Shown: piece after piece, positions 1,974 through 27,535 of the stretch
Position numbering within the stretch: position 1 is the first letter of the stretch
Layout: each line of letters begins with the position of its first letter
IMG/VR virus record: IMGVR_UViG_3300037044_000209
Span: 1 to 34,582 of that record
Length of the DNA stretch: 34,582 bases
Reading direction: 5' to 3' (one strand)
From: a virus
Taxonomy: Duplodnaviria; Caudoviricetes
Translations under genes and position numbers: made by a program
Notes under the pieces: generated by a model
Told to the model about the DNA's origin: nothing
Seen by the model: only the letters and a program-made list of their open reading frames with translations
The model's database searches: none

Positions 1974-3491
1974 TTAATGATCAATAGTTGGTCTTGTTTC
2001 TGCTTTTACCTCCTGTGTATGCCGTCTATTGATAACCTCCAAAGCATCTCGAACTCTTACCCCTTTATCTTTCAAAAGGTCTAGTTTGACTTCCTCTAAT
2101 AAGGCTTTGCTATCAGAATCTATAATGGGGCTGGTCTTTGTTTCTAATATGTGCCGAATATAATGATCCATCCTTTGTTCACTAACATGCCGGCGGATAA
2201 TACATTCTCTTCGTTTCATTCGCTGAATCCAGTTGCCAATTTCCAAATATTGGCCTCGATCATTTTCGATTACTGGCTGGCGACTCGAATCAGTTGCCGG
2301 TAATTTCTCCATCTTTGGATCATATTTGAATAATTGTTGAGCTATCTCAAATGCTTCATTGAAATTTGATACCGCAAAAGATACGACATTCCCCAAAGAC
2401 CAAATATGAGGGCGGAGTTCCTCACTCATCTGGGCTAATTCCTGTAAAACAATGTAAAGCTGTAATTTTCGACTTCGGTATTGTGGTGAAAGTTGAGAGA
2501 GTTCCGGTGCCATTCCAGGAATTGAGAGAAGGGAGTAAACCTCATCAAGTACCAAAGAAACGGGTTTCTCATTTGGATCAGCCGGCCTTCTCCTTTTTAT
2601 TTCAGCCAAAATTAGGGAAAAGGCTTGGGTAAATAGGTAATGTTGAGCTTGTTCTTGACCAATCATTTTTGCACCGTCAATTATGACCATCTTTCCACCC
2701 TCAATGGCTTCTTTAGGAGTCCAGCCTGGGTGGTAATAACCTAATCTTGCCTTAACCTCCCGGATATCGGTAAGATTAAGTAATGACCGGAGAGCATAAG
2801 TCCTCATTTCTCTTTCTCCAGATTTGATGTCTTGACTCAGATATTCGCAATTTAAAAACCAAGCGGTTTCAGGTATTTTTGATCCATATTTTTTCAACGC
2901 ATTTCGTAAAAAACCTTTATCCACCATCAAACGTTTCGTTTCCGTAATCTGCCATGTTTCCTGTGAATCGATTTCGTCATTTGATATCGCTGTAAGCATA
3001 CGGAAGAAATGAGGGGCGATTTCATTGACTGCTAAACCTCCCAAAATTGGGGCATTTTTTATCAGGTGAGGGGATAGCTTTGATAAATTACTGACAACTC
3101 TTTGGATCTGTTCTTCGTAATTACCACCATAAGCAAGTGAAAACTCCGGCATGGGAATTACCCAATCAGGGTTTCCCAACTGGTCATAAACAACTCTTCT
3201 AAGATAACCATTTCTCTTGGTTGGCTCTTCATTGAGAAGCATCGTTAGAATGCTGTCAGTGATCGATCCGCTCCAATCTAGGACAAAGACCGCCCTGTCG
3301 GGATATCGTTTGAAATAATCGACCAGGTGACGTGCTAGACTGGTGGTTTTACCTGTTCCCTGTTTTCCAATATAAAGAGTTCCCATGGTCAATCCTTCGT
3401 CAAACAACTCGTCTTCTTTTCCAATCGCCAAAGAAGAAGAAATTGGATGGTACCCAAAAAGCAATCTATTTATAGTTCTAAGATTGAGCAT
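1974..3491 (-). CDS. VirD4/TraD/HerA-superfamily P-loop ATPase (coupling-protein-like)
   Basis: Walker A GKQGTGKT, VFVLD, Walker B LVLDEV, RSRKLQLYIVLQELAQ, GNVVSF; no obvious TM segment. Confidence 0.75.
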   Translation of the reverse strand: MLNLRTINRLLFGYHPISSSLAIGKEDELFDEGLTMGTLYIGKQGTGKTTSLARHLVDYFKRYPDRAVFVLDWSGSITDSILTMLLNEEPTKRNGYLRRVVYDQLGNPDWVIPMPEFSLAYGGNYEEQIQRVVSNLSKLSPHLIKNAPILGGLAVNEIAPHFFRMLTAISNDEIDSQETWQITETKRLMVDKGFLRNALKKYGSKIPETAWFLNCEYLSQDIKSGEREMRTYALRSLLNLTDIREVKARLGYYHPGWTPKEAIEGGKMVIIDGAKMIGQEQAQHYLFTQAFSLILAEIKRRRPADPNEKPVSLVLDEVYSLLSIPGMAPELSQLSPQYRSRKLQLYIVLQELAQMSEELRPHIWSLGNVVSFAVSNFNEAFEIAQQLFKYDPKMEKLPATDSSRQPVIENDRGQYLEIGNWIQRMKRRECIIRRHVSEQRMDHYIRHILETKTSPIIDSDSKALLEEVKLDLLKDKGVRVRDALEVINRRHTQEVKAETRPTIDH

Positions 3492-14159: not shown

Positions 14160-14293
14160 ATAGTATCTGCACTGGATAAAACCTTTTTTCGTTCTGCCGT
14201 ATCTAACATTCTGTAGGCTCTCTTTGCCAACCAATAGGGGATATCATGCTTTTTAGCTTCACGACGTAACTGTTTATACTTTTTACCACTCAT
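14156..14293 (-). CDS. 45-aa basic protein (not in ORF track)
   Basis: MSGKKYKQLRREAKKHDIPYWLAKRAYR...; ATGA-coupled. Confidence 0.65.
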   Translation of the reverse strand: MSGKKYKQLRREAKKHDIPYWLAKRAYRMLDTAERKKVLSSADTI

Positions 14294-14433
14294 AAGCCGT
14301 AATGTTTTAAAACTTTTACTTTTTTCTTTTGCCTTTCACGCAACAATTTTTCTCTTGGGTCTGGATTTTTAGCTCTTCTTACCGCTTCATCCAACCAAGA
14401 ACGTATTTGAGCTTTCGTTACTTCGTTTGACAT
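14290..14433 (-). CDS. 47-aa basic protein ending YGL (not in ORF track)
   Basis: MSNEVTKAQIRSWLDEAVRRAKNPDPREKLLRERQKKKVKVLKHYGL*. Confidence 0.7.
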   Translation of the reverse strand: MSNEVTKAQIRSWLDEAVRRAKNPDPREKLLRERQKKKVKVLKHYGL

Positions 14434-14438
14434 TGTTA

Positions 14439-14699
14439 TTAAAGTCCGTATTTTCCCCCGGCCTTTTTAATTTCTGATTCAGTTCGTTCTTTTTTCTCCT
14501 GAAACTCAATAAAAGGTCTTAAAATCTCAAGCAACTTTGCTTTGGTCTTTCCTCTAATCTTGGCTTCTTCTCCAGCCTGTTCATTCGTCATATCCCCCAA
14601 TCCGGAAACATTATCCATTTCCTCAATCTTTCCAAGAATATAGTCTGCAAACTCGACAAAATCAGGGTTTGATTTTAGCTTCCTAATTAGTTCTTCCAT
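14439..14699 (-). CDS. Small helical head-assembly-region protein ending YGL
   Basis: 86 aa, helical; resembles small proteins that usually follow portal genes (by eye). Confidence 0.65.
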   Translation of the reverse strand: MEELIRKLKSNPDFVEFADYILGKIEEMDNVSGLGDMTNEQAGEEAKIRGKTKAKLLEILRPFIEFQEKKERTESEIKKAGGKYGL

Positions 14700-14704
14700 A
14701 TTTT

Positions 14705-14713
14705 ATTGTAGCA
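14705..14713 (-). promoter_or_regulatory. Extended -10 promoter, near-leaderless
   Basis: TGCTACAAT 5 nt before ATG 14699. Confidence 0.55.
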
Positions 14714-14722
14714 AATTAATAA

Positions 14723-16219
14723 TTACAAACCATAATTTTTTTGAACAAGTCCACGCCTTTCTTCTCGCTGGTGTTTTAATATCGCCTGTTTAAACTCGTC
14801 TATTGGTGATTCAGCTATCTCCAACTGCATGGCAAATGCATCGATGGTATCGTCATTAGCTCCTTTTGGAAATACAAACATTTCTTTTTCCAAGTCTCCA
14901 CATTCACCGTCAATATGGAATATTCCGCCGGCAGAATAACGGGGAATTAATCCTCTGATTCTGACTTCTTTTTGGGTTTTATTATGTTTTAGGGGATAGA
15001 TAGACGGGAATTTGTCTCTCCTCGCACATTCATCATCCAAAAATGGTTTTAAAGTCTTGAGATAAACTGTCTCCTCAATTCCTATTTTCTCAAAGCCTTC
15101 ATCATGGAGGGTAAAGATGTAATTTATCAGCTCTTTGGGGTCAAAATGAACTCTCATTGCCCTAATATTCCATTTGTTTTGTCTGTCAACATAATTTCTG
15201 ACTATTCCTGTGTAGTCATTTTCAGCTTCCTTTCCCCCAGGGTCTATGGTGGCAAACTTTCGGGTATCCAATGCCTCAATCTCTGACCATGAGCGATTCT
15301 TAATCCAATATTCTTTAAATTCCTGATTTTCCGAAGTAATGGGTGTGCCTTGATAAAGGGCTGCGAATTCATACGGTCCAAGAGTATTCTCAATTTTATA
15401 TAATTTATCCAAAGGAAATTTCTCTGGCCATAAAGCTTCACCTTTCTTTCTACATTCTTCATCTTCAGTAGCGATTGCCGGAAAGTTTATTAAATTCCAC
15501 TTGTCATAATGTTCTACCCCTTCCTCCCTATTCTTTTTTTCCTCTTCTAAGAGCCTCCCTACCAAATCATCTGTATGCCAGCGGGTGTTTAGTATGACAA
15601 TGGCGGTAGCTCCTTCCTGGCGGGTGTAGAAGGTCGACCTATACCAATTCCAACGTGAATCTCTTATCGTCTGCGACTCGGCTTCTTCTCTGTTTTTAAA
15701 TAAGTCATCAATGATTCCGATTTTAAAACCCTTTCCGGTAAATGCTCCACCGGCACCGGAGGCCATATAACTTCCCCCTTCATCTGTTTTCCAATAACCT
15801 TTAGCTTTTGCATCTGAACGTAAGCGGGTAGAAAATATTGCCTGATATTGGGATGATTGCATAATATCCCGTGTTTCTTCACCGAATTTGGTAGCCAATT
15901 CACCAGAATAAGAACCGACCATAATCGGCCAATCAGGGTGATGCCCTAATACCCAAGAGGGAAATTTCTTGGTAGATACCTCACTTTTTCCATGTCTTGG
16001 GGGAACGGTGACGATAATCCGGGCATCTTCTCCCCGTTCAACCTTTTCCATGGCCGTCTGGAGAATAGCTGATAATGTCTCATGGAACCATGTGTCTTGA
16101 TAGATTTTGTCTGTAGCGATTGCAAAATCAATTAGATTTTTCTTCGCTTGATGAATCACCATTGCTTCTGCCTCTTGCGGCAATACGCTCGGCAATCCTG
16201 TCGATTTGTCGGTCATCAA
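14723..16219 (-). CDS. terL: Terminase large subunit
   Basis: PPRHGKS Walker A, IIDD Walker B, TRWHTDD, DPG...DYTG and DDTIDA nuclease motifs; true start may be 16162. Confidence 0.95.
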   Translation of the reverse strand: MMTDKSTGLPSVLPQEAEAMVIHQAKKNLIDFAIATDKIYQDTWFHETLSAILQTAMEKVERGEDARIIVTVPPRHGKSEVSTKKFPSWVLGHHPDWPIMVGSYSGELATKFGEETRDIMQSSQYQAIFSTRLRSDAKAKGYWKTDEGGSYMASGAGGAFTGKGFKIGIIDDLFKNREEAESQTIRDSRWNWYRSTFYTRQEGATAIVILNTRWHTDDLVGRLLEEEKKNREEGVEHYDKWNLINFPAIATEDEECRKKGEALWPEKFPLDKLYKIENTLGPYEFAALYQGTPITSENQEFKEYWIKNRSWSEIEALDTRKFATIDPGGKEAENDYTGIVRNYVDRQNKWNIRAMRVHFDPKELINYIFTLHDEGFEKIGIEETVYLKTLKPFLDDECARRDKFPSIYPLKHNKTQKEVRIRGLIPRYSAGGIFHIDGECGDLEKEMFVFPKGANDDTIDAFAMQLEIAESPIDEFKQAILKHQREERRGLVQKNYGL

Positions 16220-16628
16220 ATTTATTGGTTACTTCACCACTAATCTCGGTACTAATTTCTTCTTTCATTCCATGATTAGCAGAAAGTATTAATTTTGTAA
16301 TTGTAGGGTTATAGTATCCTCCCAACCCTTCATCTATTAGACGTTGTAGCTGTTCTTGTTTAATTCGCTCCAAAGCTTCGTCAACTTCTGAATGGATAGC
16401 TCTCCAATCATAAATAGTCCTCTTGGCATGACCCAAGTAAGCTATAAAGCCCTCAATAGTGGGCAATCTTACCTGATAAATTCTAGAAACTCCGCCCCTT
16501 TTATTGGTTACAACTTCAACATGATCCTGACGTTTTTGGAGATATTCCTCTAGCTTCTTCTTAAACTTTTCCCGATTATAAGATGTCGGTCTGCCTGTTT
16601 TCTTGGTGTAGTGATATTTTTTTGGCAT
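16128..16628 (-). CDS. terS: Terminase small subunit (gp3-like)
   Basis: GRPTSY, PTIEGF..YLG....IYDW, YNPTITKLILSANHG; upstream of terL. Confidence 0.85.
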   Translation of the reverse strand: MPKKYHYTKKTGRPTSYNREKFKKKLEEYLQKRQDHVEVVTNKRGGVSRIYQVRLPTIEGFIAYLGHAKRTIYDWRAIHSEVDEALERIKQEQLQRLIDEGLGGYYNPTITKLILSANHGMKEEISTEISGEVTNKFDDRQIDRIAERIAARGRSNGDSSSEEKSN

Positions 16629-16681
16629 AGCATTATGCTAGTATAATAACATTTCACAACGCTTACTAAATAATGATAGCA
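16629..16681 (-). promoter_or_regulatory. Late-module leader motif, copy 3
   Basis: TGCTATCAT-9-AGCGTTGTG-N17-CATAATGCT-ATG; 9-bp stem with two G.U pairs. Confidence 0.75.
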
Positions 16682-16741
16682 TAGACAAATTCCATTATAT
16701 AATTCTCCTTAAATTTTGGGAATAAATACAAGAGGGACATT

Positions 16742-17296
16742 ATGATATGCATTTCGTGTGGCAAAGAACTACCTGACCAAAGCTTATTTTGCTTATACTG
16801 TGGAAAAAAGCAAGAGAGAACCACCGCCGAAAAAGATCCTAGGTTTACCCCCATATCGCTAAATGTATTTAGATTTGATTCAATCGGGCCGAAGGAAGTA
16901 CGGAAGGGAGGTTTCCTTAGTGTTGACAAAATCGGACGAGGTTTTTATTTTAGTCTCATGCTGCTTAACTACGAAAACAAAAAAGTTATTTCAGATGGCA
17001 AGTTAATAATAGTTATGACTAGTGCACCCATAGGTCTTGGGGCTCCAATTCTTGAAGCAAAGGCTGAAGTCGCTCAAAAATATGCTAGTGCAAAAAATAT
17101 ATTGTTTAGTAAATCAATTGAATTGACCAAGGCAGATTTCGACGAAAATTACAACTACCAGTATGTTCAAATGACACCCCTTGTGTTTGTCGATACAATT
17201 CCATATGGGACGGAAGGCGTTTATTTGCACGTTTGGTTTGTCACAGATGAAGGAAAATGCGTATATGACAATTTCCATGCACCTTTTTGGCATTAG
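16742..17296 (+). CDS. N-terminal zinc-ribbon accessory (moron-like) protein
   Basis: CISCGKELPDQSLFCLYCG; opposite strand; SD GAGGG. Confidence 0.75.
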   Translation: MICISCGKELPDQSLFCLYCGKKQERTTAEKDPRFTPISLNVFRFDSIGPKEVRKGGFLSVDKIGRGFYFSLMLLNYENKKVISDGKLIIVMTSAPIGLGAPILEAKAEVAQKYASAKNILFSKSIELTKADFDENYNYQYVQMTPLVFVDTIPYGTEGVYLHVWFVTDEGKCVYDNFHAPFWH

Positions 17297-17391
17297 TAGG
17301 AAAAACTTAGATTATCGTCATTGATCCTGCGATAAGGATAAATAATTTCTATATATTAAATTGGAGAAGGCTTGCTGTAAAATAAAATTAC

Positions 17392-17589
17392 ATGATATTT
17401 GTCATCGGACTATTTTGTTTACTGGCAACATTTGGTAGTTTGGCAAAAATAATCTCCGGTAGGTGGTTTGATGATAATTATGTGTCCAGCTTTATCACCA
17501 AAGGTTTTTCTCTGATTTTCCAAACAATTTCACCAATAATCGCAATTTTCTTTATCTATTGCGTTTTCTCTTTAATTCAGAACCCTTAA
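17392..17589 (+). CDS. Small two-TM accessory protein
   Basis: Two hydrophobic helices; TAAAAT 8 nt upstream. Confidence 0.55.
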   Translation: MIFVIGLFCLLATFGSLAKIISGRWFDDNYVSSFITKGFSLIFQTISPIIAIFFIYCVFSLIQNP

Positions 17590-19133
17590 TTTGCGGACTC
17601 TTTTAGAATCTTAATTATTCCATCTTCAAGGGAAGAGTCTTTTGTAACTTTCAAGAGTTTATCGAGCTTTTTGAGATTCTTGCTTAGAACATTTTCAAGG
17701 TCTATAGAATTTAAAACCTTCAAACCGACATTACTTGGTAACAAACGAGAAACAAACCCTGACAATGTATTAAAGGTGGCGGCATTAACAACATCTGCTG
17801 CTCCCCTTGATACCTTTTCCAGTACCCCTCTTTTCTTGGCTTTTTGATATAAGGCATTAACCTTTTCTTCCATTTTTCCAACTAATCTGTTGGTATTGTA
17901 TAAATCACTCATTCTTTCATCCAACATTTTTACCGTATTATCAGGCATAAGATTGCGAACTACATTTTTAATCCCCTTTCTAGTATTTTCAAATGCTTGA
18001 GCGTTCACGCTAGTTAAAGCGTCTCCTAGTTTACTAAATGCCTTTTTACCAAACTCTTTATTATAAATTCTCGATAAATCATTCAATTCTCTAAGAGATA
18101 ATCCCTCTTTAGCTAATTTTTCCTTTAATTGAATAATCTCGGCTCTTTTTGGGGCATCCTTAATACTTACATAAAGCTCATCTAATTGATTCAAAGCATC
18201 ATCTACAAAATTTTGTTTAATAGCTTTGTCTCCAACTTTAGTCACGGTAACTAAAGCATCGGATTTTAGTTGACCAACCTTTGTGCCAGCTTCTTCCAAT
18301 AAATCATCAACTTTTGTGGCCAATGCTTCAATGCCATCATCAATTCTTTCACCTAACTCAGTATAAGTTTTAATACCTTCGGTGTTGATAGTTGATAAGG
18401 CTTTTTTTGCTTTTAAAACATCATCAGTTTTACCCTGAACTATTTTTCCAACAACAGTATCAATTTCGTCGGTGGCACTGGCAATTCTTGCTGCTCGATT
18501 AGCGTCAATCACTTTATCTGTGACTTTGGAAACAGCCTTTATTCCCTGTTGAGTTCCTTTGACTGTTAACTGAGCCCCTTTAACGTAAGGGACAATAGCG
18601 GCTATATTTACTACATCTTCGAGGTCTTGAGCGGCTTCTGGGTGTTTTTCTTTAAATTCACCTAGCTTTTGCATGACATTTTGGGCAAATTCTGTTTCAC
18701 TTACCTTTTCAAGTCCTTTTAATGCTAAATCTTCAGCAAATTTCGGGGCAACTAATTTTAAAACACTCAATTCAAGATCACCGACTAGTCCTCCAACCTG
18801 ACCACCGACTCTTAACATCGTCCTTCCCTGACCGTCCTCAATTCTTTTTTTAGCATCCTCTTGGTCTTTGGGGACAATTGCCTCTTTAATGTTTGAGCCT
18901 CTTTCTTTGAAAGCGTCAACTACATCAGTTCCAAATTCTTTCACCGCATCTACAGGACTTCCTATGGTTTTATTATTTGGTAAGTCTTCAATCTGTTTTC
19001 CATAGACAGGATATTTCTCGACTATTTTTCCGACTAAATCCTCATCTTTCATTTGAGAATATGGAGTTCCATCACTGGCTATTCCATCGGGATATTTTTC
19101 TCTGATAGTTTTGGCAAAATCTGCTGTTTTCAT
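17586..19133 (-). CDS. Putative DNA ejection/internal virion protein
   Basis: 515 aa helical; N-terminal FAxxIRxKYP...Y....D..L......KYP.Y motif; position. Confidence 0.65.
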   Translation of the reverse strand: MKTADFAKTIREKYPDGIASDGTPYSQMKDEDLVGKIVEKYPVYGKQIEDLPNNKTIGSPVDAVKEFGTDVVDAFKERGSNIKEAIVPKDQEDAKKRIEDGQGRTMLRVGGQVGGLVGDLELSVLKLVAPKFAEDLALKGLEKVSETEFAQNVMQKLGEFKEKHPEAAQDLEDVVNIAAIVPYVKGAQLTVKGTQQGIKAVSKVTDKVIDANRAARIASATDEIDTVVGKIVQGKTDDVLKAKKALSTINTEGIKTYTELGERIDDGIEALATKVDDLLEEAGTKVGQLKSDALVTVTKVGDKAIKQNFVDDALNQLDELYVSIKDAPKRAEIIQLKEKLAKEGLSLRELNDLSRIYNKEFGKKAFSKLGDALTSVNAQAFENTRKGIKNVVRNLMPDNTVKMLDERMSDLYNTNRLVGKMEEKVNALYQKAKKRGVLEKVSRGAADVVNAATFNTLSGFVSRLLPSNVGLKVLNSIDLENVLSKNLKKLDKLLKVTKDSSLEDGIIKILKESAN

Positions 19134-20164
19134 ATTCCTAAAGGATTATTAATATTTCCACCTTGTAAAAGTTTTAATGGGTCGGTAGTATTCCCAGACC
19201 GGGGAATTAATGGGGACATATCAACTCCCACTGTGGGAGAATAACGATTGGCAAGATATTCGGATATTGCCTTTATTCCCTCAATATTTTCCTGTTCTTG
19301 CTTTGTTTCACTTGGTAGTGATTCCATTAAAAATTTCCTTTCAGCGTCTGATACTTGTGCTCCTGAAATTGCTTTGATAAATCTGGCAGTATAGACATTC
19401 ACCAAGGCTGCAAATCGATCTTCTTCTGGTTCAGTCTTTCCTAAAGTTCTTTTTCCGGGGATAGCTTTAACTCCAAACACACTAACTCCTTTTCTTGAAG
19501 CTCCGACTATCGGCCCGGTGGCAATTCCACTTTCAATTGCTTGGATAATCTCTTGGCCTGTTTGCAAAGTCCCCAACGATTCCATTACGCCTTCACGCTC
19601 ACTTTGAGAACCCAAAGATTGAGCCTTTGAAGATACTTGAGATTTAACCGAATTAATGATTTTCTGTTGCTCTGGCAATGGTAAGGTATCCAAATCAGCA
19701 TATTGATTTTCAGATTGATCACCCACTGAAGCTAATAAATCGTAAGTTTGGCCTATCTTGTCGAGTTCTGTGATATCTGTAACCCCATTATTAAAGGCGT
19801 CTCTCAATATCTCAACTTTACTTTTTCCTCCGAAAGGATCTGAAACATTAGTCTTTATAGAATTAATACTCTCTATACTCTCATCAGTTGTAGTTTCTGT
19901 AGATTTAGTGGATAAGATTTGTTGTCTTTGTTTTAAAGCATTTTGGATATCTGCCTCTTTAGCTCCTCCAATTTTTAGAGTATTTAAAAGTTGCTCATCT
20001 TCTGGTTTAACTTGAAATGTTTCTTTTTTGTTCTTATCCGTACTGACTGTACCTGCTTCTACCCAACCATTAGGCTCGTATTTCCATGTTTTTCCAGAAG
20101 AAGGGTCTTTCCAAATTGTTCCGACTCCTCCTGATGGAGTAAATTGTGGTTTATTTATATTCAT
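19130..20164 (-). CDS. Putative DNA ejection protein
   Basis: SGAQVSDAERKFL...LP motif; start moved to ATGA overlap at 20164. Confidence 0.65.
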   Translation of the reverse strand: MNINKPQFTPSGGVGTIWKDPSSGKTWKYEPNGWVEAGTVSTDKNKKETFQVKPEDEQLLNTLKIGGAKEADIQNALKQRQQILSTKSTETTTDESIESINSIKTNVSDPFGGKSKVEILRDAFNNGVTDITELDKIGQTYDLLASVGDQSENQYADLDTLPLPEQQKIINSVKSQVSSKAQSLGSQSEREGVMESLGTLQTGQEIIQAIESGIATGPIVGASRKGVSVFGVKAIPGKRTLGKTEPEEDRFAALVNVYTARFIKAISGAQVSDAERKFLMESLPSETKQEQENIEGIKAISEYLANRYSPTVGVDMSPLIPRSGNTTDPLKLLQGGNINNPLGI

Positions 20165-21543
20165 GCTATTTTTTTCCATCCTGAACTAGTATATTGCCAG
20201 ATTTCACCTGTAGATGGATCAACATAAACAGTCCCAACTCCTCCAGATGGACTGAATTGAGGTGATTGACCTGTTGTTTGAGTTGAATCTTGAGTGTTAT
20301 TCACTGATTGATAACTCATAGTGGATGTATCACCAGCCAATATCTTTTTTAAATAATCATCAGCTGTACTGGTAGTCGATCCACTTCCTGTTGCAGGCAT
20401 TTTATAGTAATAAGTTTTACCCTTGCTATCGGTGAAAGATTTTAATTGTGCTGCGGGGATACCTGATGGATTTGTGACTAATACCCCTCCGGCGGATGTA
20501 AATTGGTTGGCGGTATCTCGAACTTCTTTAGAATATTGATAATTAGCTAGTTTTTGATTGATTCCCTCTACTGTGTCATTCAAACTAACTCCAGATTGAG
20601 CCATAGCCATGGCAGTATCAGGATTAATCATCAATTCTTTGATGTAATCGGATGTTGCCTGTGCTCGGCCAAGGTCATTTTTCAAAAGGTCTGTTTGCTC
20701 TTGGGCAAGTTTACGATCTTCAGCGGTAAGGGTGATAATGTCTCTATTGGCAAGATTTAAAACCGTTTCGTAATATCCCAACCGATCCATTCTATCTTGA
20801 GTAATTGCTCCGATACTTCGGTCAATTGAATAATAGGCGTTAGCCAGGTAGGTGTTTTGTAGACTGACAACGGCAGAAATGACTCCAGCTCTAGCTGATA
20901 CATCATCCATGGTTTTCTGTACCCTTGGATTTCTAATCGCTGCTAATCCGGTAGTTTCCTGTTGTTGTTTAATAAGGTTGTTACCTTCGGTTAAAAGTTG
21001 GTCTAATTCATTCAACAATTCTCTCTGTTGGAAAATAACCTCATCAGTTCCATACCTTTCCCTCTCTGACTTTTCTAGTTCCTCCCTAAAAGGCGTAGTA
21101 AGCTTGTCAACTTCTCCTAAAGCTGCGGTCTCTTTTGCCTTGGCTGCATCGAGTTCACCTTGGGTTTTAGCTCTTTGTTCGTTTAAATTTACCTCAAGTG
21201 CGTTTCGAGCTTTTTGAACTTCCTCATTTAAACCGAATACATAATTCTGATTAGCTCCTGTCGTATAAGCTGGAGTTACTCCTGGGGTGATACTTTGAGC
21301 AGATACATTGGCAAGATATTGGTCAAATTGTTGGAGAGAAACACCTTGGGCGGCAGCTGAGGCGGATCTGACTTCCTGATTTACTGCTGAACCAGCTCCT
21401 TGTTGATTAGATTCAGGGTGAATTACATTAGGATCTGATAAGGTCCCATTCCAATATTGTCTGCCTTGATACCATCCACCAGTTTGAAATCCCCCTGATG
21501 GTGCTGTAATTCCTAGTTGAGTTGGATTATAAGTATTTGCCAT
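20161..21543 (-). CDS. Putative DNA ejection protein
   Basis: Gln/Ala-rich coiled coil; start moved to ATG 21543 after the leader hairpin. Confidence 0.6.
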   Translation of the reverse strand: MANTYNPTQLGITAPSGGFQTGGWYQGRQYWNGTLSDPNVIHPESNQQGAGSAVNQEVRSASAAAQGVSLQQFDQYLANVSAQSITPGVTPAYTTGANQNYVFGLNEEVQKARNALEVNLNEQRAKTQGELDAAKAKETAALGEVDKLTTPFREELEKSERERYGTDEVIFQQRELLNELDQLLTEGNNLIKQQQETTGLAAIRNPRVQKTMDDVSARAGVISAVVSLQNTYLANAYYSIDRSIGAITQDRMDRLGYYETVLNLANRDIITLTAEDRKLAQEQTDLLKNDLGRAQATSDYIKELMINPDTAMAMAQSGVSLNDTVEGINQKLANYQYSKEVRDTANQFTSAGGVLVTNPSGIPAAQLKSFTDSKGKTYYYKMPATGSGSTTSTADDYLKKILAGDTSTMSYQSVNNTQDSTQTTGQSPQFSPSGGVGTVYVDPSTGEIWQYTSSGWKKIA

Positions 21544-21584
21544 GCGTTGTTTAAAACACAACGCTTTATTAAAAAATTATAACA
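21544..21584 (-). promoter_or_regulatory. Late-module leader motif, copy 2
   Basis: TGTTATAAT-10-AGCGTTGTG-TTTTAA-ACAACGC-ATG. Confidence 0.8.
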
Positions 21585-21588
21585 AAAA

Positions 21589-22485
21589 TTAATCAGCTAT
21601 TTTGTCTTTAAAAATAATAACCCTAAAACTAATAGTAAGAGTACCGGGTAAATTAACTACTAAAATTGAATTAGAACCTGATGTTGTATCTCCTAACCAG
21701 CTATTTGTCGGACTACCATCATTGGTTATTAAAAATCCCATTGCATTGCCTGATGTCCAATTATTTCTGGCAATAATTTCTTCTAAAGAAGATTTTATGT
21801 TTATTTGAAAACTAAAAGGAGTAGAAGCAGGATTCTGATTTTGTGATGTATAAGCAGTTGTACGACTTCTTCCCATTGGATTACTACCAAAATCTCCGGT
21901 ATTATCTTCATCAATTCCATAAGTTTTCATCTTAGTATCCGAAGTACTACTTCCTTTCTGAGCTACATAAGCATCTATATAAGCCGCAGATACCGATTGA
22001 TTCTTGGTTAAAGTAATACCGGCAAACCTCATAGCACCAGACATATTTCCCATACCATCCGCATCATTGTTGCCTACAACATATAAATTCCTACCACTTC
22101 CCCCAGACCATTCACCAAAATAATCATTTAGACTATAAATTTGCCTATTATATGGACTGGCATAGGAATAACCAACTGTAATACCGGTGGTGGTGGCATA
22201 TGCCCAAGGGTAATAATCAAATCCAACTCCATAAGGGATATCGGGTAATAACCTTTCTACTGATTCGTCAGACCGTTTGTAATAAATCAAAAAAGCGGGT
22301 ACATACCCCAAACCATGAGAAACAGTAGACGATTTCTCGGTATCACCAGCTGAAAAGGAAACGGATGTCGTAGAAGAAGAATGGAGTTTAAACATAGAAA
22401 AGGTATTGATATCAACGCTCAAATCCCTCATATCAGTAGAATGAACTGATTTTCCCGGCTTAGCTATCTTTATTCCGTGTGTCAT
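21589..22485 (-). CDS. Tail protein, paralogue 3 with inserted beta-sandwich domain
   Basis: GIKIAKPGKSVHST...HGLGYVP core plus about 170-aa insertion. Confidence 0.65.
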   Translation of the reverse strand: MTHGIKIAKPGKSVHSTDMRDLSVDINTFSMFKLHSSSTTSVSFSAGDTEKSSTVSHGLGYVPAFLIYYKRSDESVERLLPDIPYGVGFDYYPWAYATTTGITVGYSYASPYNRQIYSLNDYFGEWSGGSGRNLYVVGNNDADGMGNMSGAMRFAGITLTKNQSVSAAYIDAYVAQKGSSTSDTKMKTYGIDEDNTGDFGSNPMGRSRTTAYTSQNQNPASTPFSFQINIKSSLEEIIARNNWTSGNAMGFLITNDGSPTNSWLGDTTSGSNSILVVNLPGTLTISFRVIIFKDKIAD

Positions 22486-22886
22486 AAGCCGTCATCTCCA
22501 AAAATAAAGTAACTAACCTTAACAGATTTGGTTGAAGCAGTAGTATTATTTACTCTAATTTTCAAATAGGTAGTATCAACATAAGTTGTTGCCGAATCAG
22601 GATTAACTAAGACATAAGAAGAAGGAAAACCATCCGCAATACTGGGAATACTCACTCCACAATAGAAATGACCTGAAGCCAATTCAGCAAAAACCCAACA
22701 CATTGGCACAAAATCAAGCCCATGTGTTACTGATACATCAGTATATGAGCCGGCATTGACATTGATTGAGGCAGTATTTTCACTATAAATCTTTATGGTC
22801 TCATAATCAGAATTAAAGATGTAGTCATTCGGATTAGTACTGGTTACACTCTTTCCTGATTTGGCTACCTTTACTCCATAACTCAT
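22482..22886 (-). CDS. Tail protein, paralogue 2
   Basis: GVKVAKSGKSVTST...HGLDFVP. Confidence 0.65.
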   Translation of the reverse strand: MSYGVKVAKSGKSVTSTNPNDYIFNSDYETIKIYSENTASINVNAGSYTDVSVTHGLDFVPMCWVFAELASGHFYCGVSIPSIADGFPSSYVLVNPDSATTYVDTTYLKIRVNNTTASTKSVKVSYFIFGDDGL

Positions 22887-23185
22887 ATTGCTTGATGATA
22901 AAGAATGTAATATCTAATATCAGATTCGGCTCTAACATAAGTAGAATCAACACTACTACCTGTTGTTTCAATCTGTCCGACAATTCCTGCTTTGGTTGAT
23001 GAAAACTTGACCATGGATAGAACTATCGGGACGTACCCTAAACCATGAGCATAAGTCTGTCCATCATTAAGCGTGCCAGAATGTTTGACCTTTAAAGTCT
23101 CTAAATCCTCTCGGATAACAAAATCATTCGGGTCTGTTGAGTAAACACTCTTTCCGTGTTTTGCAATTCTAAAAACATTTGTCAT
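22883..23185 (-). CDS. Tail protein, paralogue 1
   Basis: FRIAKHGKSVYST...HGLGYVP. Confidence 0.65.
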   Translation of the reverse strand: MTNVFRIAKHGKSVYSTDPNDFVIREDLETLKVKHSGTLNDGQTYAHGLGYVPIVLSMVKFSSTKAGIVGQIETTGSSVDSTYVRAESDIRYYILYHQAI

Positions 23186-23550
23186 TAAGTTGGGTATAAA
23201 CCAATAAGGACAATATCGTTGGTGCCGTCATTGATTACTATACTGCCTCCTAAAACCTGTTCTTCTCCATTCTTTGTAAGATAAGCATTAGCAGTAAGGC
23301 TGGTAACAGTTGTATTCCCTTCCATATCAACTTTAAAAGGAGCTTCTCCAAAATCTGCTGAACCTAACCAAATCCCCTCACTGCTTTGTCCAAAAACTTT
23401 ATTGCCATATCCTCTCACTAATTTATCAGAAAACGCCTGTAACCCTCCAATATTTTGTCCCAGTGGCATATCTCCGGCGATATACTCCGTCATCAGTTCC
23501 TGACTGGCGGATTTTAGTGACATTCTTGGTGATAGATCAATTGTTTTCAT
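23185..23550 (-). CDS. Tail needle/hub-like protein
   Basis: GIWLGSADF.EAPFKVDMEG; C-terminal I.INDGTN..VLIG; follows nozzle. Confidence 0.5.
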   Translation of the reverse strand: MKTIDLSPRMSLKSASQELMTEYIAGDMPLGQNIGGLQAFSDKLVRGYGNKVFGQSSEGIWLGSADFGEAPFKVDMEGNTTVTSLTANAYLTKNGEEQVLGGSIVINDGTNDIVLIGLYPT

Positions 23551-24980
23551 TACCTTTCAACAAAGTTTCCTAAACAAGTAATCTTTCTAATTGGACAATT
23601 AGCACTCGCACTACCATTCTGATAACTAATAGCCACTCGTAAATCTTCAACAGCCGGCAGATTAATGGTTTTAAAAACATGTCTGGTTTTACTAGTCCCT
23701 GTTATCTCAAAAGCACTGGATGTTTCTGCTCCTTGGTTGCCTTCAAGGGTTAAATCTGCCCTTGCTCCTGCTCCCAATGCCTTGGTACTTACAATAACCG
23801 TATGTACCCTACCCAAACTCCTTTCTTTAGTCAAATCAACCAAAACACTTTTCCAACTGCTGTCAGTTGAATAACCATTAAACTTGGCAAGACGGTGGTT
23901 ACTTGACCCATCCGTAGAGGCGACAATGGGTATCCCAAAGGGAGCAGCTATCCCCCCCACGGTGGCATAACCACCATCCGCCAAGTCTGAAATTTGGATC
24001 GGCAATTGCTCAACTTGAGCACCGAAGGAAAACACATCAGCCCCAGATACGAAGATGATCGTGTTTTTATAAAGTGTTTTTTGCCGATGGTTTGGTAGAG
24101 AGCCCGAAAAATATCGAAGCGGTTTTAGTTGTCTTCCTGAAATCCAGCCTATCGCATAGCCATCAGCTGATAAATCCTCGTAAGCCACATAAACAATTCC
24201 GTTTAAAACATAAAGAAAACCTATTTTCTGACTGCCAATTCCAACTTCATCTGAGAGTATATTGGACATTGCTGAACCATCATAAAGATAAATTTGACTT
24301 CTTCTCCCTTCTCCGTAATTTACTGCTATCCACCAAAGATTTGAATGGAAAACAACATCGGCAACTTCTGCACCTTCCCCAAAATCTAGCTTTTGTATAT
24401 CTAGGGTTGCTGACCCTTCGACATAAACTCCAACATATCTTCCATTACCAAAAACCATAATATCTTCTTTAGCAGCGACTGGATGTGGTGCATTTTCTAA
24501 TGCTGCATCAGTTGTAGAACCCCAGTCAGGATCAATTACTTCTGTAGATAAAGGCATTTGGAAAATATCTCCACCAGAAGATTTGTTGAAAAAGCCATAC
24601 AAGTTAGCCTTGAGCCTAATTAAACTCTCACCACTCGTCATATTAGTTACTGCTTGAGGCCAAGAAGGTGTACCACCACTCGTGACTGTGGTTGAAGACA
24701 ACTTGAATAATTTAGTTGTACCGATAGCGTAGGTGGTGTCTGAGGCTGTGGGTTTATCTAGGATAAAACGTATGAGCTGATCGACTACTCCTGCTTGGGT
24801 ACCGTTGGTTAGGTCGGCTAATGCTGGAGATTGCTGTAAAAACCCAGGGTTAGAAATAACGTCTGCTTTCATCTCTGAAGCCTGGCCTTTTGAGCCTTTA
24901 AAAGTTTTGGTGTCGATATGAGCTAATGGAGAGAATCCATCTCCAAAATCTTCAAATGTAATTGCAAATTGAGTATCCAT
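23550..24980 (-). CDS. Tail nozzle/stabilisation protein (P22 gp10-like beta-propeller)
   Basis: 476 aa beta-rich; F.DF..G N-terminus; podovirus context. Confidence 0.65.
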   Translation of the reverse strand: MDTQFAITFEDFGDGFSPLAHIDTKTFKGSKGQASEMKADVISNPGFLQQSPALADLTNGTQAGVVDQLIRFILDKPTASDTTYAIGTTKLFKLSSTTVTSGGTPSWPQAVTNMTSGESLIRLKANLYGFFNKSSGGDIFQMPLSTEVIDPDWGSTTDAALENAPHPVAAKEDIMVFGNGRYVGVYVEGSATLDIQKLDFGEGAEVADVVFHSNLWWIAVNYGEGRRSQIYLYDGSAMSNILSDEVGIGSQKIGFLYVLNGIVYVAYEDLSADGYAIGWISGRQLKPLRYFSGSLPNHRQKTLYKNTIIFVSGADVFSFGAQVEQLPIQISDLADGGYATVGGIAAPFGIPIVASTDGSSNHRLAKFNGYSTDSSWKSVLVDLTKERSLGRVHTVIVSTKALGAGARADLTLEGNQGAETSSAFEITGTSKTRHVFKTINLPAVEDLRVAISYQNGSASANCPIRKITCLGNFVER

Positions 24981-26746
24981 TATGCATTGACCGGTGGCTC
25001 TTGCGGTTTACCGGCTCTATTTACTGGTTGCCCTTGTTGTGAGGGAACTTCTAATAGTTGAGGTTGTGGTTGTCTTGGAGGTATAGGAATATTTCTTGAT
25101 CGATATATCTGATCCAATATCCAGTTAATTCTCTCCGGGTCTTGTTCAAAGCCAATAAGTTGAGTCAAGTCTTGTAGTTGTTCTGAGAGGTCGTAATTTT
25201 CTCCAGTGATGGTGACAAACAATCTGGGCATTACTGCTTCCCAAATCTTTTTAGTGTTTTTGATGGCTGGATCGGCTTTCTTAATTTCCTCCAACTTTTC
25301 TTCTTTTATTGCTACTGCCGTTTCTTTGGTGTGTGGGCCAATGGCAACTAGATTTTGAGCATACCAACTATCGACTAATATCTCTCGGAGTTGGTCCATG
25401 ATATCGGTTTCACCTACAAACCTGAATACATCTTTACCTTTCATGTCCTTGATAAGTTCCGGTAATACCCATTCTTTGAAGACTCGCTTATAAGGTAGAG
25501 TAATTTTTTGTCGTAAGAGGACAAATAACTTGCCGGCATTCTGATCCATCAAGAGTCCCATTCTAAACGGTGTATTTGAAGGTGGGGTATCACCTCTAGT
25601 TACTTCATAGGAATTGGATAGCTTATCAGCATCGGTCATTAGTCTGTTCCAGTCGGCAATCAACTGGTCAAGGCTTCTCATTCGGACATCAACCTGTTGC
25701 AAATCATCAGTAATGACAATATCTCCATTGTCCATATCAGCTCTGATATTCTGTAAAACCTTAGCATCTCCACTTCGGAAGATGACCTTAGAAGCCCATT
25801 CAAGCCCTCTGGCTAATTGATTACCGATTTCATTGGCTCTAATCTGGTGGTCGAATAAGAGTTCATACATTCCCACTCTCCAAAACCTACCTTCAAACTT
25901 ACCTCGGTGAGCAAAGATGTAATGATCAGACATTGTTCCGGTTAATTTATCAGCAAATAGGGTGTATTTCTCACCTGTACCGCTTTCTTTCAGGCCGGCA
26001 ACAACTACCTTGGCTAGAAAGTATTTATTTTCATCTCCAGTATCTTTCCCTTTAGCTTGGTTAAATTCCAGTTCATTGACTTCACCAGTAAACTCAAATA
26101 CTTCATACCTTTTTCCAGTAGCTGAAATCGGGGTAGTTTGAGTAGAGGCTTTAAAAGACTTATTTCCCAAATTCTCAATGACTAAATCTATATTCTCCTG
26201 ATCCCATTGTTTCATTCCTTTGAGTTGAGAGGCTGTCATTTCATGACGTTCAAGAATATCGGTATCATCAATCGTTTGAGCCTTCTGATTGGTAACGTAG
26301 GTATTTAAAACGTCAATAATCTCATATCCACCGTCTACTCTTTTAAAACCGATATTTCCATTAGCCACAAACTCTTCAACAGAAGACTTCAGTTTAATAT
26401 CCTCCCCTTTTTTCGACATCCAAGACTTTAGGGTAGCGTTAGAGAGGAAAACGGCAGCAAAATCCTTTATCGGGTTTTGGGAGAACACCATGATATTTTT
26501 GGTATCAAAGCGGAGATTCTTGATTTCATTATCTGCCCGAGGAGAAGTGATATCGAAGTAGTAGTTATAACTCAAATCCGGATTAATCTTTTCCCCGGTC
26601 AAATCCCTATTACGGAATTTATAGATACGGTTTATCAAATTATGCTGGCTAAAATGGACTCCCGGACTTATCTCAATCTTGCCAGAAATGTAACTACCTA
26701 TCTCGCTTTCTAATCTTTTAAAAAGGGTTGATTGTATCTTTTTCAT
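24980..26746 (-). CDS. Portal protein
   Basis: 588 aa; GRFWRVGMYELLFDHQ..ANE..NQ; Q/P-rich C-terminal tail. Confidence 0.75.
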   Translation of the reverse strand: MKKIQSTLFKRLESEIGSYISGKIEISPGVHFSQHNLINRIYKFRNRDLTGEKINPDLSYNYYFDITSPRADNEIKNLRFDTKNIMVFSQNPIKDFAAVFLSNATLKSWMSKKGEDIKLKSSVEEFVANGNIGFKRVDGGYEIIDVLNTYVTNQKAQTIDDTDILERHEMTASQLKGMKQWDQENIDLVIENLGNKSFKASTQTTPISATGKRYEVFEFTGEVNELEFNQAKGKDTGDENKYFLAKVVVAGLKESGTGEKYTLFADKLTGTMSDHYIFAHRGKFEGRFWRVGMYELLFDHQIRANEIGNQLARGLEWASKVIFRSGDAKVLQNIRADMDNGDIVITDDLQQVDVRMRSLDQLIADWNRLMTDADKLSNSYEVTRGDTPPSNTPFRMGLLMDQNAGKLFVLLRQKITLPYKRVFKEWVLPELIKDMKGKDVFRFVGETDIMDQLREILVDSWYAQNLVAIGPHTKETAVAIKEEKLEEIKKADPAIKNTKKIWEAVMPRLFVTITGENYDLSEQLQDLTQLIGFEQDPERINWILDQIYRSRNIPIPPRQPQPQLLEVPSQQGQPVNRAGKPQEPPVNA

Positions 26747-26764
26747 TAAAGGGTATGAAAACTA

Positions 26765-27469
26765 TTAAAGTCCATAAGCATTTACGGATTGTTTTTTTAA
26801 CCTAAATCTGGTTCTATCATCAGGACTTCTTCTGGCGTAATGCTCCTGAATTGTCGCCCTGATTCTTTCTTTTTCAGACATTAAAAAAGAAGCTTTTTCT
26901 TTCATCCCATTTGCCAGAGCATAACGGAGGGAAGCACCGATAGATAAGTATTGATGGAATTGTGGATTAAATCCAGGCTTTTCGTCTGTATCAGCAGTCG
27001 AGAAATGATTAGCTCCTCTTTGGAACTCTAATTCATATTCTATTGCTGACGATGGCACTGGTATTGGAAAGATAGCATTATCGATTTTGTAGTACTTATA
27101 AGGTGTCCCGGTGGAGTTTAAATCACTATCAGATAATTCTCGCCTAGTTACCGAAGTTAGAGTTTTATATACCCCACTAGTATCTTTAATTCTTACCCGA
27201 TGAATCACCATACTTCCATCAGGTATGGTTACATGGTCTTCACTTGTAGTAATGGTAGCAATTGGAAAGTCTGTATTAGTAATATCGTCCCACATGAAAT
27301 TGGGATCGGCTTTAAAAAGTTCGGAGACTACCTCATCCAGAGAGATGTTGACATTTCGTGTTCTATCGGCCAAGGCGTAATCACTGTTGAATGTTGAGCC
27401 GTCAGCAAATAACAAAAAATCGATGTCTGCGACAATCGAATTACTTTTATCTGTAGGATTAAATTGCAT
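26765..27469 (-). CDS. Head-tail adaptor/connector protein
   Basis: GTPYKYY...IFPIPVP, FHQYL..GA..RY pattern; start moved to ATG 27469; ends YGL. Confidence 0.7.
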   Translation of the reverse strand: MQFNPTDKSNSIVADIDFLLFADGSTFNSDYALADRTRNVNISLDEVVSELFKADPNFMWDDITNTDFPIATITTSEDHVTIPDGSMVIHRVRIKDTSGVYKTLTSVTRRELSDSDLNSTGTPYKYYKIDNAIFPIPVPSSAIEYELEFQRGANHFSTADTDEKPGFNPQFHQYLSIGASLRYALANGMKEKASFLMSEKERIRATIQEHYARRSPDDRTRFRLKKQSVNAYGL

Positions 27470-27535
27470 AGCCGTTGAGATACTAATCACAACGCTTTAA
27501 AAATTATAGCATTTCTAATCTTGGTGTGTAAATTA
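27470..27535 (-). promoter_or_regulatory. Late promoter and leader motif, copy 1
   Basis: TTTACA-18-TATAAT (TGn), 6 nt, then AGCGTTGTGA-TTAGTA-TCTCAACGGCT-ATG. Confidence 0.8.

Follow-up and report, generated by a model that had tools for sequence, protein, structure and literature searches.

The 34,582-nt stretch of viral DNA analysed here (IMG/VR record IMGVR_UViG_3300037044_000209, referred to at its full length as the window) encodes four proteins that end in the same tripeptide, Tyr-Gly-Leu (YGL), directly before the stop codon. These are the large terminase TerL, the head-tail adaptor, and two small proteins of 86 and 47 amino acids (aa), hereinafter designated p86 and p47. The shared motif is a real feature: its presence on non-homologous proteins exceeds chance and persists in their homologues. 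In related phages, the charge of the tails changes together with a residue of a predicted hairpin in the wing of the portal protein. Judged from these alignments, it is fairly probable that one pocket at the portal wing loop is used in turn by the tails of p86, p47, TerL, and the adaptor. The features concerned are as follows.

14290..14433, minus strand: p47, 47 aa, likely two helices judging from the sequence pattern; YGL at 14290-14301
14439..14699, minus strand: p86, 86 aa, no known family; YGL at 14439-14450
14723..16216, minus strand: TerL, 497 aa, Terminase_6N type (PF03237, E 3.7e-18; phrog_38, E 9e-95)
14723-14734, minus strand: YGL codons and stop of TerL, at the end of a helical C-terminal tail
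24980..26746, minus strand: portal protein, 588 aa, the proposed common partner (AlphaFold2 model, Foldseek, VIA)
26561..26590, minus strand: portal residues 53-62, putative wing hairpin, predicted pocket wall; co-variation of residue 61 with tail position -4 and of residue 54 with tail position -3
26765..27490, minus strand: head-tail adaptor, 241 aa when read from a GTG start (234 aa in its database form); YGL at 26765-26776, the end of a C-terminal arm

Four non-homologous proteins share a C-terminal motif

An earlier note on this DNA had pointed out the four YGL ends and the codons that specify them. A six-frame scan of the window returned exactly the same four open reading frames (ORFs), all on the minus strand, with the same codons: TAT GGT TTG TAA for TerL (stop at 14723), TAC GGA CTT TAA for p86 (stop at 14439), TAC GGC TTA TGA for p47 (stop at 14290), and TAT GGA CTT TAA for the adaptor (stop at 26765). 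Among 58 hand-picked likely genes (10,674 residues), YGL occurs four times, always at the C-terminus; internal copies are absent, and none of the other 54 genes ends in YGL. In a set of 200,000 random draws, four termini came to have a tripeptide in common 4 times; the analytic value is 4.4e-5.

The C-termini are conserved in homologues, a check that the earlier note had called for. In related loci (duplicates counted), 41 of 43 TerL homologues end exactly in [YFH]G[LFI], all 35 p47 matches end in x-G-[LFI], and 32 of 39 p86 matches end in xG[LIF]. Database homologues give a similar picture. The motif [YFH]G[LFIVM] ends 96 of the 103 p47 homologues and exactly ends 80 of the best 120 of 251 adaptor homologues (89 of 120 when it may lie within three residues of the end). 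For p86, clustering at 50% identity gives 347 representatives; among those listed (150), xG-hydrophobic lies no more than 2 residues from the end in 89.

The motif loosens with distance. Close relatives carry x-[YFH]-G-[LFI], and the tails of distant relatives are often acidic, of the form D-hydrophobic-G-L. The basic segment earlier described in front of YGL is therefore a trait of the window lineage only, distant clades being mostly acidic. In the window clade the motif almost invariably closes the chain; many distant adaptors, and p47 homologues in some cases, have it internally, followed by up to ~20 residues.

Beyond the four families, 2,187 other unique ORFs were compared across the related loci, and 37 of them end in hydrophobic-G-hydrophobic. 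Ten of these appear by eye to be unassigned TerLs or TerL fragments, and the eight of them that were scanned were all confirmed as terminases. No fifth tail-bearing family is evident among the 2,187 ORFs.

p47 resembles a stand-alone copy of the TerL tail

The TerL tail comprises ~30 residues past the conserved motif that ends the nuclease domain; it is charged and hydrophobic, with an invariant Arg and a G-L. The last 22 residues of p47 match this tail in register (profile-profile probability 92.8%, 22 columns, single-pair E 3.8e-7), which agrees with the earlier description of the 47-aa protein as a free-standing TerL tail. Specifically, when 30 TerL and 25 p47 tails are aligned at their ends, Arg at -14 is invariant in both (30/30 and 25/25), and both have K/R at -11, V/I/M at -7, mostly K/R at -5, and an aromatic-G-L/F end. 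Of the 50 genomes with a readable tail on both proteins, 49 have TerL and p47 in agreement as to Asp at -4, and the lone exception is a register error. The adaptor arm is conserved past its last helix and resembles the TerL tail over about the last six residues.

The pattern of substitution indicates that p47 is a real gene under purifying selection, as the earlier note had supposed: besides its 103 conserved homologues, the proportion of synonymous differences (pS) is 0.44-0.76 and that of nonsynonymous differences (pN) 0.13-0.23 in four pairs. The corresponding values for p86 are 0.71-0.78 and 0.16-0.22 in two pairs. Across 74 genomes, the distance between the p47 and portal genes is at most 60 nt in 46 and at most 1 kb in 64. 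No convincing family match was obtained for p47 (147 p47 sequences against PHROGs; PDB; Atlas matches below 0.9 or none) or for p86 (30 relatives against Pfam, 40 against PHROGs; PDB; Atlas likewise below 0.9 or none), and short helical proteins are easily missed by such searches. Taken on its likeness to the TerL tail, p47 is a candidate assembly factor of a new class, one that would mimic the terminase tail as a separate protein.

One clade with the K61 portal type described below (L068:4875-11746, L089, and L091) has no detected p47 gene beside the portal gene and retains the acidic motif on the adaptor arm. It offers a natural test case for the dispensability of p47. In another locus, a 279-aa gene that by eye is homing endonuclease-like (L069:3342-4181) lies between the portal gene and the p47 homologue.

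The portal has the fold of podophage portals

The portal protein was modelled with AlphaFold2 from 150 alignment rows, with a predicted local distance difference test score (pLDDT) of 82 and a predicted template-modelling score of 0.76. This model replaced an unusable one from a 10-sequence alignment (pLDDT 48). A PDB sequence search with the portal profile returned nothing. By structure, the top Foldseek match is the SU10 portal (7z44, E 1.6e-12), and VIA aligns the model with the portals of N4 (Z 24.5, root-mean-square deviation (RMSD) 6.2, 457 residues aligned) and SU10 (Z 23.2, RMSD 6.8, 445 residues aligned). Overall, the model matches the portals of SU10, N4, Pa223, and T7 with Z of 20-24.5 over ~300-460 residues and has their wing-stem-clip-crown fold. 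Residues 53-62 sit between wing helices 34-45 and 67-78, and within them 54 and 60 are each a single bridge residue. By its position in the model, this segment would be a hairpin equivalent to the wing loop of SU10.

The adaptor belongs to the SU10_adaptor family (PF24175, 28.2 bits against a gathering cut-off of 27), as do most of its homologues. In the cited passages, the C-terminal loop of the SU10 adaptor ends between the wing loop of one portal subunit and the stem of the next (PMC9509320), and the tips of adaptor arms lie on the portal in SU10, P22, Pa223, and P74-26 (PMC9509320, PMC5290284, PMC12407722).

The tail class follows the portal, not the terminase

Portal-based scans reached relatives down to ~35% portal identity and gave 143 genomes after merging, 105 of them with a near-full portal. 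TerL-body sequences in this set form six clusters at <30% identity, and both Terminase_6N and Terminase_3 types are represented. A tree built from the bodies after removal of the tails requires five changes of tail class, and in 36 of 37 genomes the class is the one of the portal clade. Sister TerLs that sit in different portal clades differ in tail class (L040 from L004; L200 from L072 and L196; L212 from L147 and L194). Tail class thus tracks the head module and portal lineage and not TerL ancestry. Because it does so across TerL families, the partner of the tails is unlikely to be TerL itself.

Five TerL genes are oversized, at 760-840 aa with large insertions (L004:286-2775, L032:3874-6174, L044:6697-9219, L045:387-2879, and L167:252-2564), and that of L167 has a LAGLIDADG_3 match, which suggests that these genes carry inteins.

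The tails co-vary with two residues of a predicted portal hairpin

Ranking all 588 portal columns by tail class places residue 61 first. This residue is Lys in 38 of 38 Asp-tail genomes; in the other clade it is N/D/E/Q in 42 of 42 and K/R in none of the 42. The portal of the window phage has Asn at 61 and Ile at 54, and L040 and L106 are examples of relatives with K61. The tails are acidic (DYGL type) with portal K/R61 and non-acidic with E/D/N/Q61. With a rule applied blind, a strict acid at -4 was found, in K/R61 genomes versus the others, in 17/25 versus 0/25 TerLs, 34/53 versus 0/26 p47s, and 16/50 versus 0/25 p86s. The portal's own C-terminus, taken as a control, has such an acid in 4/63 versus 1/42. 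The D-[YFH] motif on the adaptor arm, scored by eye, is present in 10/13 K61 genomes and 0/36 others; a regular expression gave 9/13 and 2/36, with three rows out of register.

Twenty TerLs that lay outside the derivation of the rule show a strict -4 acid in 11/19 versus 0/1; eight of these 20 were first noticed by their G-hydrophobic end, not by the acid. Over all 70 TerLs, an acid anywhere from -6 to -3 occurs in 42/44 K/R61 genomes and 2/26 others.

A second tail trait, a small residue at -3 of the p47 tail, places portal residue 54 at the top of the 588 columns, this residue being aromatic in 12 of 16 such genomes and in 0 of 54 others. Portal residues 55, 57, and 59 also follow these splits. 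Columns of the scaffold protein follow tail class less well than portal residue 61. As read from the alignments, the association of the tails with portal residues 61 and 54 is strong, yet it comprises few independent events.

Several observations weigh against a single hairpin pocket. On the portal tree, the K/R61 switch occurred just once, so Fisher and contingency P values overstate the evidence. Tree-aware sign tests on independent pairs are under-powered (p 0.125-1), with none significant and none in the opposite direction. Portal residues 220, 335, 126, and 420 follow the split as well. The capsid protein gives a tree congruent with that of the portal (5 versus 5 changes), and capsid columns 57, 146, and 178 are roughly as diagnostic of the split as portal 61. 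When the comparison is confined to the 48 genomes with a capsid gene as well, portal columns 59 and 126, not 54, follow the -3 trait best. Among K/R61 TerLs, 16 of 44 have no strict -4 acid, and several have no Gly. p86 matches the TerL tail only in the last three residues (profile probability 1%), and a majority of the distant p86 tails have no G-L. On the side of the literature, P22 gp4 and TerL are described on different portal faces (PMC5290284), and the adaptor site of P74-26 is described as occluded in the procapsid (PMC12407722).

Other explanations for the shared tail

The tails could bind the portal at separate sites. TerL and p47 would use a common site, for example at the clip, and the ends of the adaptor and p86 would be look-alike helix caps lying in other grooves. 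An x-G-hydrophobic ending is a common helix C-cap, p86 and the adaptor match TerL only over the last 3-7 residues, clip residue 335 and residue 126 also follow the split, and the two faces of the P22 portal noted above fit such an arrangement. Against it, the genomes in which the adaptor arm and the p86 tail turn acidic are those with acidic TerL and p47 tails, a switch that generic capping does not predict, and no other gene of the window ends in YGL. We consider separate sites unlikely.

Rather improbably, the tails would all bind the major capsid protein where it surrounds the portal vertex, or else a cleft formed jointly by capsid and portal, and portal 54 and 61 would be mere lineage markers. 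The congruence of the capsid and portal trees would follow from it, and capsid residue 146 is D/E in 23 of 23 non-K61 genomes and in 0 of 35 K/R61 genomes, a charge-compatible direction. One 2025 preprint raises the speculation that it is the capsid, at hexons round the vertex, to which TerL tails bind (PMC12407722, in the passage cited). Adaptor arms, in contrast, end on the portal in the four phages named above. Moreover, two separate tail traits choose portal columns seven residues apart, portal 61 shows a full charge reversal and scores 1.25 versus 1.0 for the best capsid column in the same genomes, and the p47 gene travels with the portal gene.

The earlier note had named a shared degron as the alternative to portal docking. 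A C-terminal degron or PDZ-type ligand would be read by a host protease and time the turnover of assembly proteins; possible readers are ClpX, Lon, and Tsp-like proteases. The basic residues and hydrophobic C-terminus in the window lineage resemble protease tags, and the motif is nearly always at the exact C-terminus in the window clade. A free carboxylate is, however, not a constant of the motif, which distant adaptors and some p47s carry internally. The tail is also present on a structural virion protein, is found on none of the other 54 gene ends of the window, and flips its charge with a portal residue. A degron is thus very improbable. The co-variation with the portal hairpin favours the other part of the proposal, a portal-docking peptide, and the peptide is not strictly YGL-COOH, being internal or acidic in distant clades.

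Least credible of all is a DNA-level duplication or repeated gene conversion of 3' ends with no common function: three of the four genes are adjacent, TerL and p47 have 23 bases in common over the last 45 nt, and p47 may well derive from the TerL 3' end, but a duplication without function is largely refuted by pS exceeding pN and by the persistence of the tails across unrelated TerL bodies and altered gene orders, and gene conversion as the source of the similarity was rejected because Gly codons are about as identical within genomes as between them (0.37 versus 0.32; stop codons 0.37 versus 0.38; 20 genomes).

A proposed portal hand-off

In the reading that we favour, the portal ring would have a single pocket, walled by wing hairpin 53-62, in which the four tails dock at successive points as the head is assembled. 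An acid at tail position -4 would pair with portal K/R61, and a small residue at tail position -3 with an aromatic residue at portal 54. p86, whose gene lies ahead of those of the scaffold and capsid proteins, would engage the portal during prohead assembly; binding of p86 to the portal at this stage is likely. During packaging, five TerL tails would take five of the twelve pockets. p47, the free copy of the TerL tail, would fill the remaining pockets and keep the adaptor out; on its sequence, p47 is likely a TerL-tail mimic that would guard empty pockets. After headful cleavage, twelve adaptor arms would displace TerL and p47 and lock the tail on. The site of the pocket, the order of binding, and the guard role are what we infer from these patterns.

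A more specific version is tentative: the portal would have one twelve-fold pocket with a two-residue code (61 with -4, 54 with -3), p47 would plug the pockets left unfilled by the five-tailed motor and so gate the hand-off from motor to adaptor, and an acquired foreign terminase would have to adopt the matching tail.

Complex prediction, which the earlier note had suggested as a check, was run with two copies of portal residues 5-435 and p47, using alignments. It gave a score of 0.34, versus 0.00 for the best of three controls, but no interface. Of 157 solved complexes, 116 attain the score mark, as do 2 of 215 mismatched pairs; at scores ≤0.60, only 18 of the 157 attain it, along with both mismatches. 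These counts apply only roughly to the present runs, which had their own alignments and three chains. In the runs at least 68% of contacts agree and the partner pLDDT is at least 62. The prediction weakly supports binding of p47 to the portal; it shifts the odds little and gives no location for the site.

Genome and neighbouring genes

The window is a whole assembly (34.6 kb, 38% GC) and carries the gene set of a temperate phage, including an integrase, TerS, TerL, a scaffold-like protein, an HK97-type capsid protein, a tail fibre, and an endolysin. It is an uncultured SU10/P22-like short-tailed temperate podophage. The TerL, p86, and p47 genes are adjacent to one another, and the adaptor gene directly precedes the portal gene. 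The portal was found in one of 50,697 GenBank phage records, where it is annotated as hypothetical; a viral scan with the TerL of L040 matched only itself.

Four loci of a genome collection contain the TerL of the window, in bins assigned to Patescibacteria (two), Gammaproteobacteria (one), and Woesearchaeota (one). The inspected p47 and p86 starts have AT-rich leaders without an obvious Shine-Dalgarno sequence. A Patescibacteria host is therefore a tentative assignment.

Two neighbouring proteins encoded on the minus strand (20161-21543 and 19130-20179) have a 29-residue module in common, at the C-terminus of the first (residues 428-456) and the N-terminus of the second (residues 11-39). The copies are 62% identical (E 5e-12), and both are also present in L065. 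Both genes lie between those of the nozzle and the terminase, a position that makes ejection proteins likely, and the module may pair head to tail. The 349-aa protein encoded at 19130-20179 and its relatives (L024:8-208 and L065:11903-12922) end in a conserved NPLGI, a motif distinct from YGL. A 505-aa protein (1974-3491, minus strand) has a weak TraG-D_C match (21.7 bits, below the cut-off of 22) and is possibly a coupling-protein-like ATPase inside a prophage.

Relation to known portal-binding tails

Portal binding by adaptor arms and by TerL tails is each known separately; what the window phage would add is one common motif, a residue-level code, and a free mimic. According to the sections cited, TerL C-termini are required for portal binding in P22, T3, lambda, and SPP1 (PMC5290284; PMC13595956 section 13), the prohead- and portal-binding tail of P22 gp2 being residues 483-499 (PMC5290284; PMC13595956). 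As in the window, these are charged hydrophobic tails beyond the nuclease domain; the tail of the window phage is also conserved and matched to the portal. In contrast, the same sections map no binding pocket for those tails and report no tail copy on other proteins, and the P22 tail is basic and proline-rich, whereas that of the window TerL is a helix ending in aromatic-G-L.

The adaptor compares with the embracing loop of SU10/T7-type adaptors and with the P22 gp4 arm in its PF24175 family, in the fold of the portal that it serves, and in the motif at the distal end of the arm (PMC9509320, PMC5290284, bioRxiv 2025.06.11.659172). In the window phage, the sequence of the arm tip recurs at the ends of TerL, p47, and p86, and P22 gp4 and TerL are described on different faces. 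Successive assembly proteins are also described as using the portal elsewhere, the clip as a dual terminase and plug site and the wing as a scaffolding site (PMC13386823). In the passage cited, that sharing is at the level of domains, whereas the present proposal is one linear motif with a residue code (54, 61) and a dedicated small mimic.

Targeted literature searches, covering mostly open-access article text, returned no shared TerL/adaptor motif, no portal residue code, and no free TerL-tail mimic or small competitor. All of these are likewise absent from the parts consulted of PMC5290284, PMC9509320, bioRxiv 2025.06.11.659172, PMC12407722, PMC13386823, PMC11728703, and PMC13595956.

Among C-terminal motifs that dock on a hub, clamp-binding peptides and SSB-tail peptides are the closest parallel. 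There, too, unrelated proteins compete by one short tail for one pocket on a ring-shaped hub. In the window phage, the hub would differ in being a viral portal and the clients in being successive assembly factors.

The docking site of the terminase tail and the portal hand-off from motor to tail are open questions, and a 2026 review counts few atomic portal-TerL structures (PMC13595956 section 13, the part cited). The window family offers an answer that is testable at residue level, for which short peptides, a pair of portal point mutants, and naturally occurring swap pairs are suited. If true, a pocket common to four proteins would show where the tail of the motor docks and would explain how terminases of different families are exchanged on one head module.

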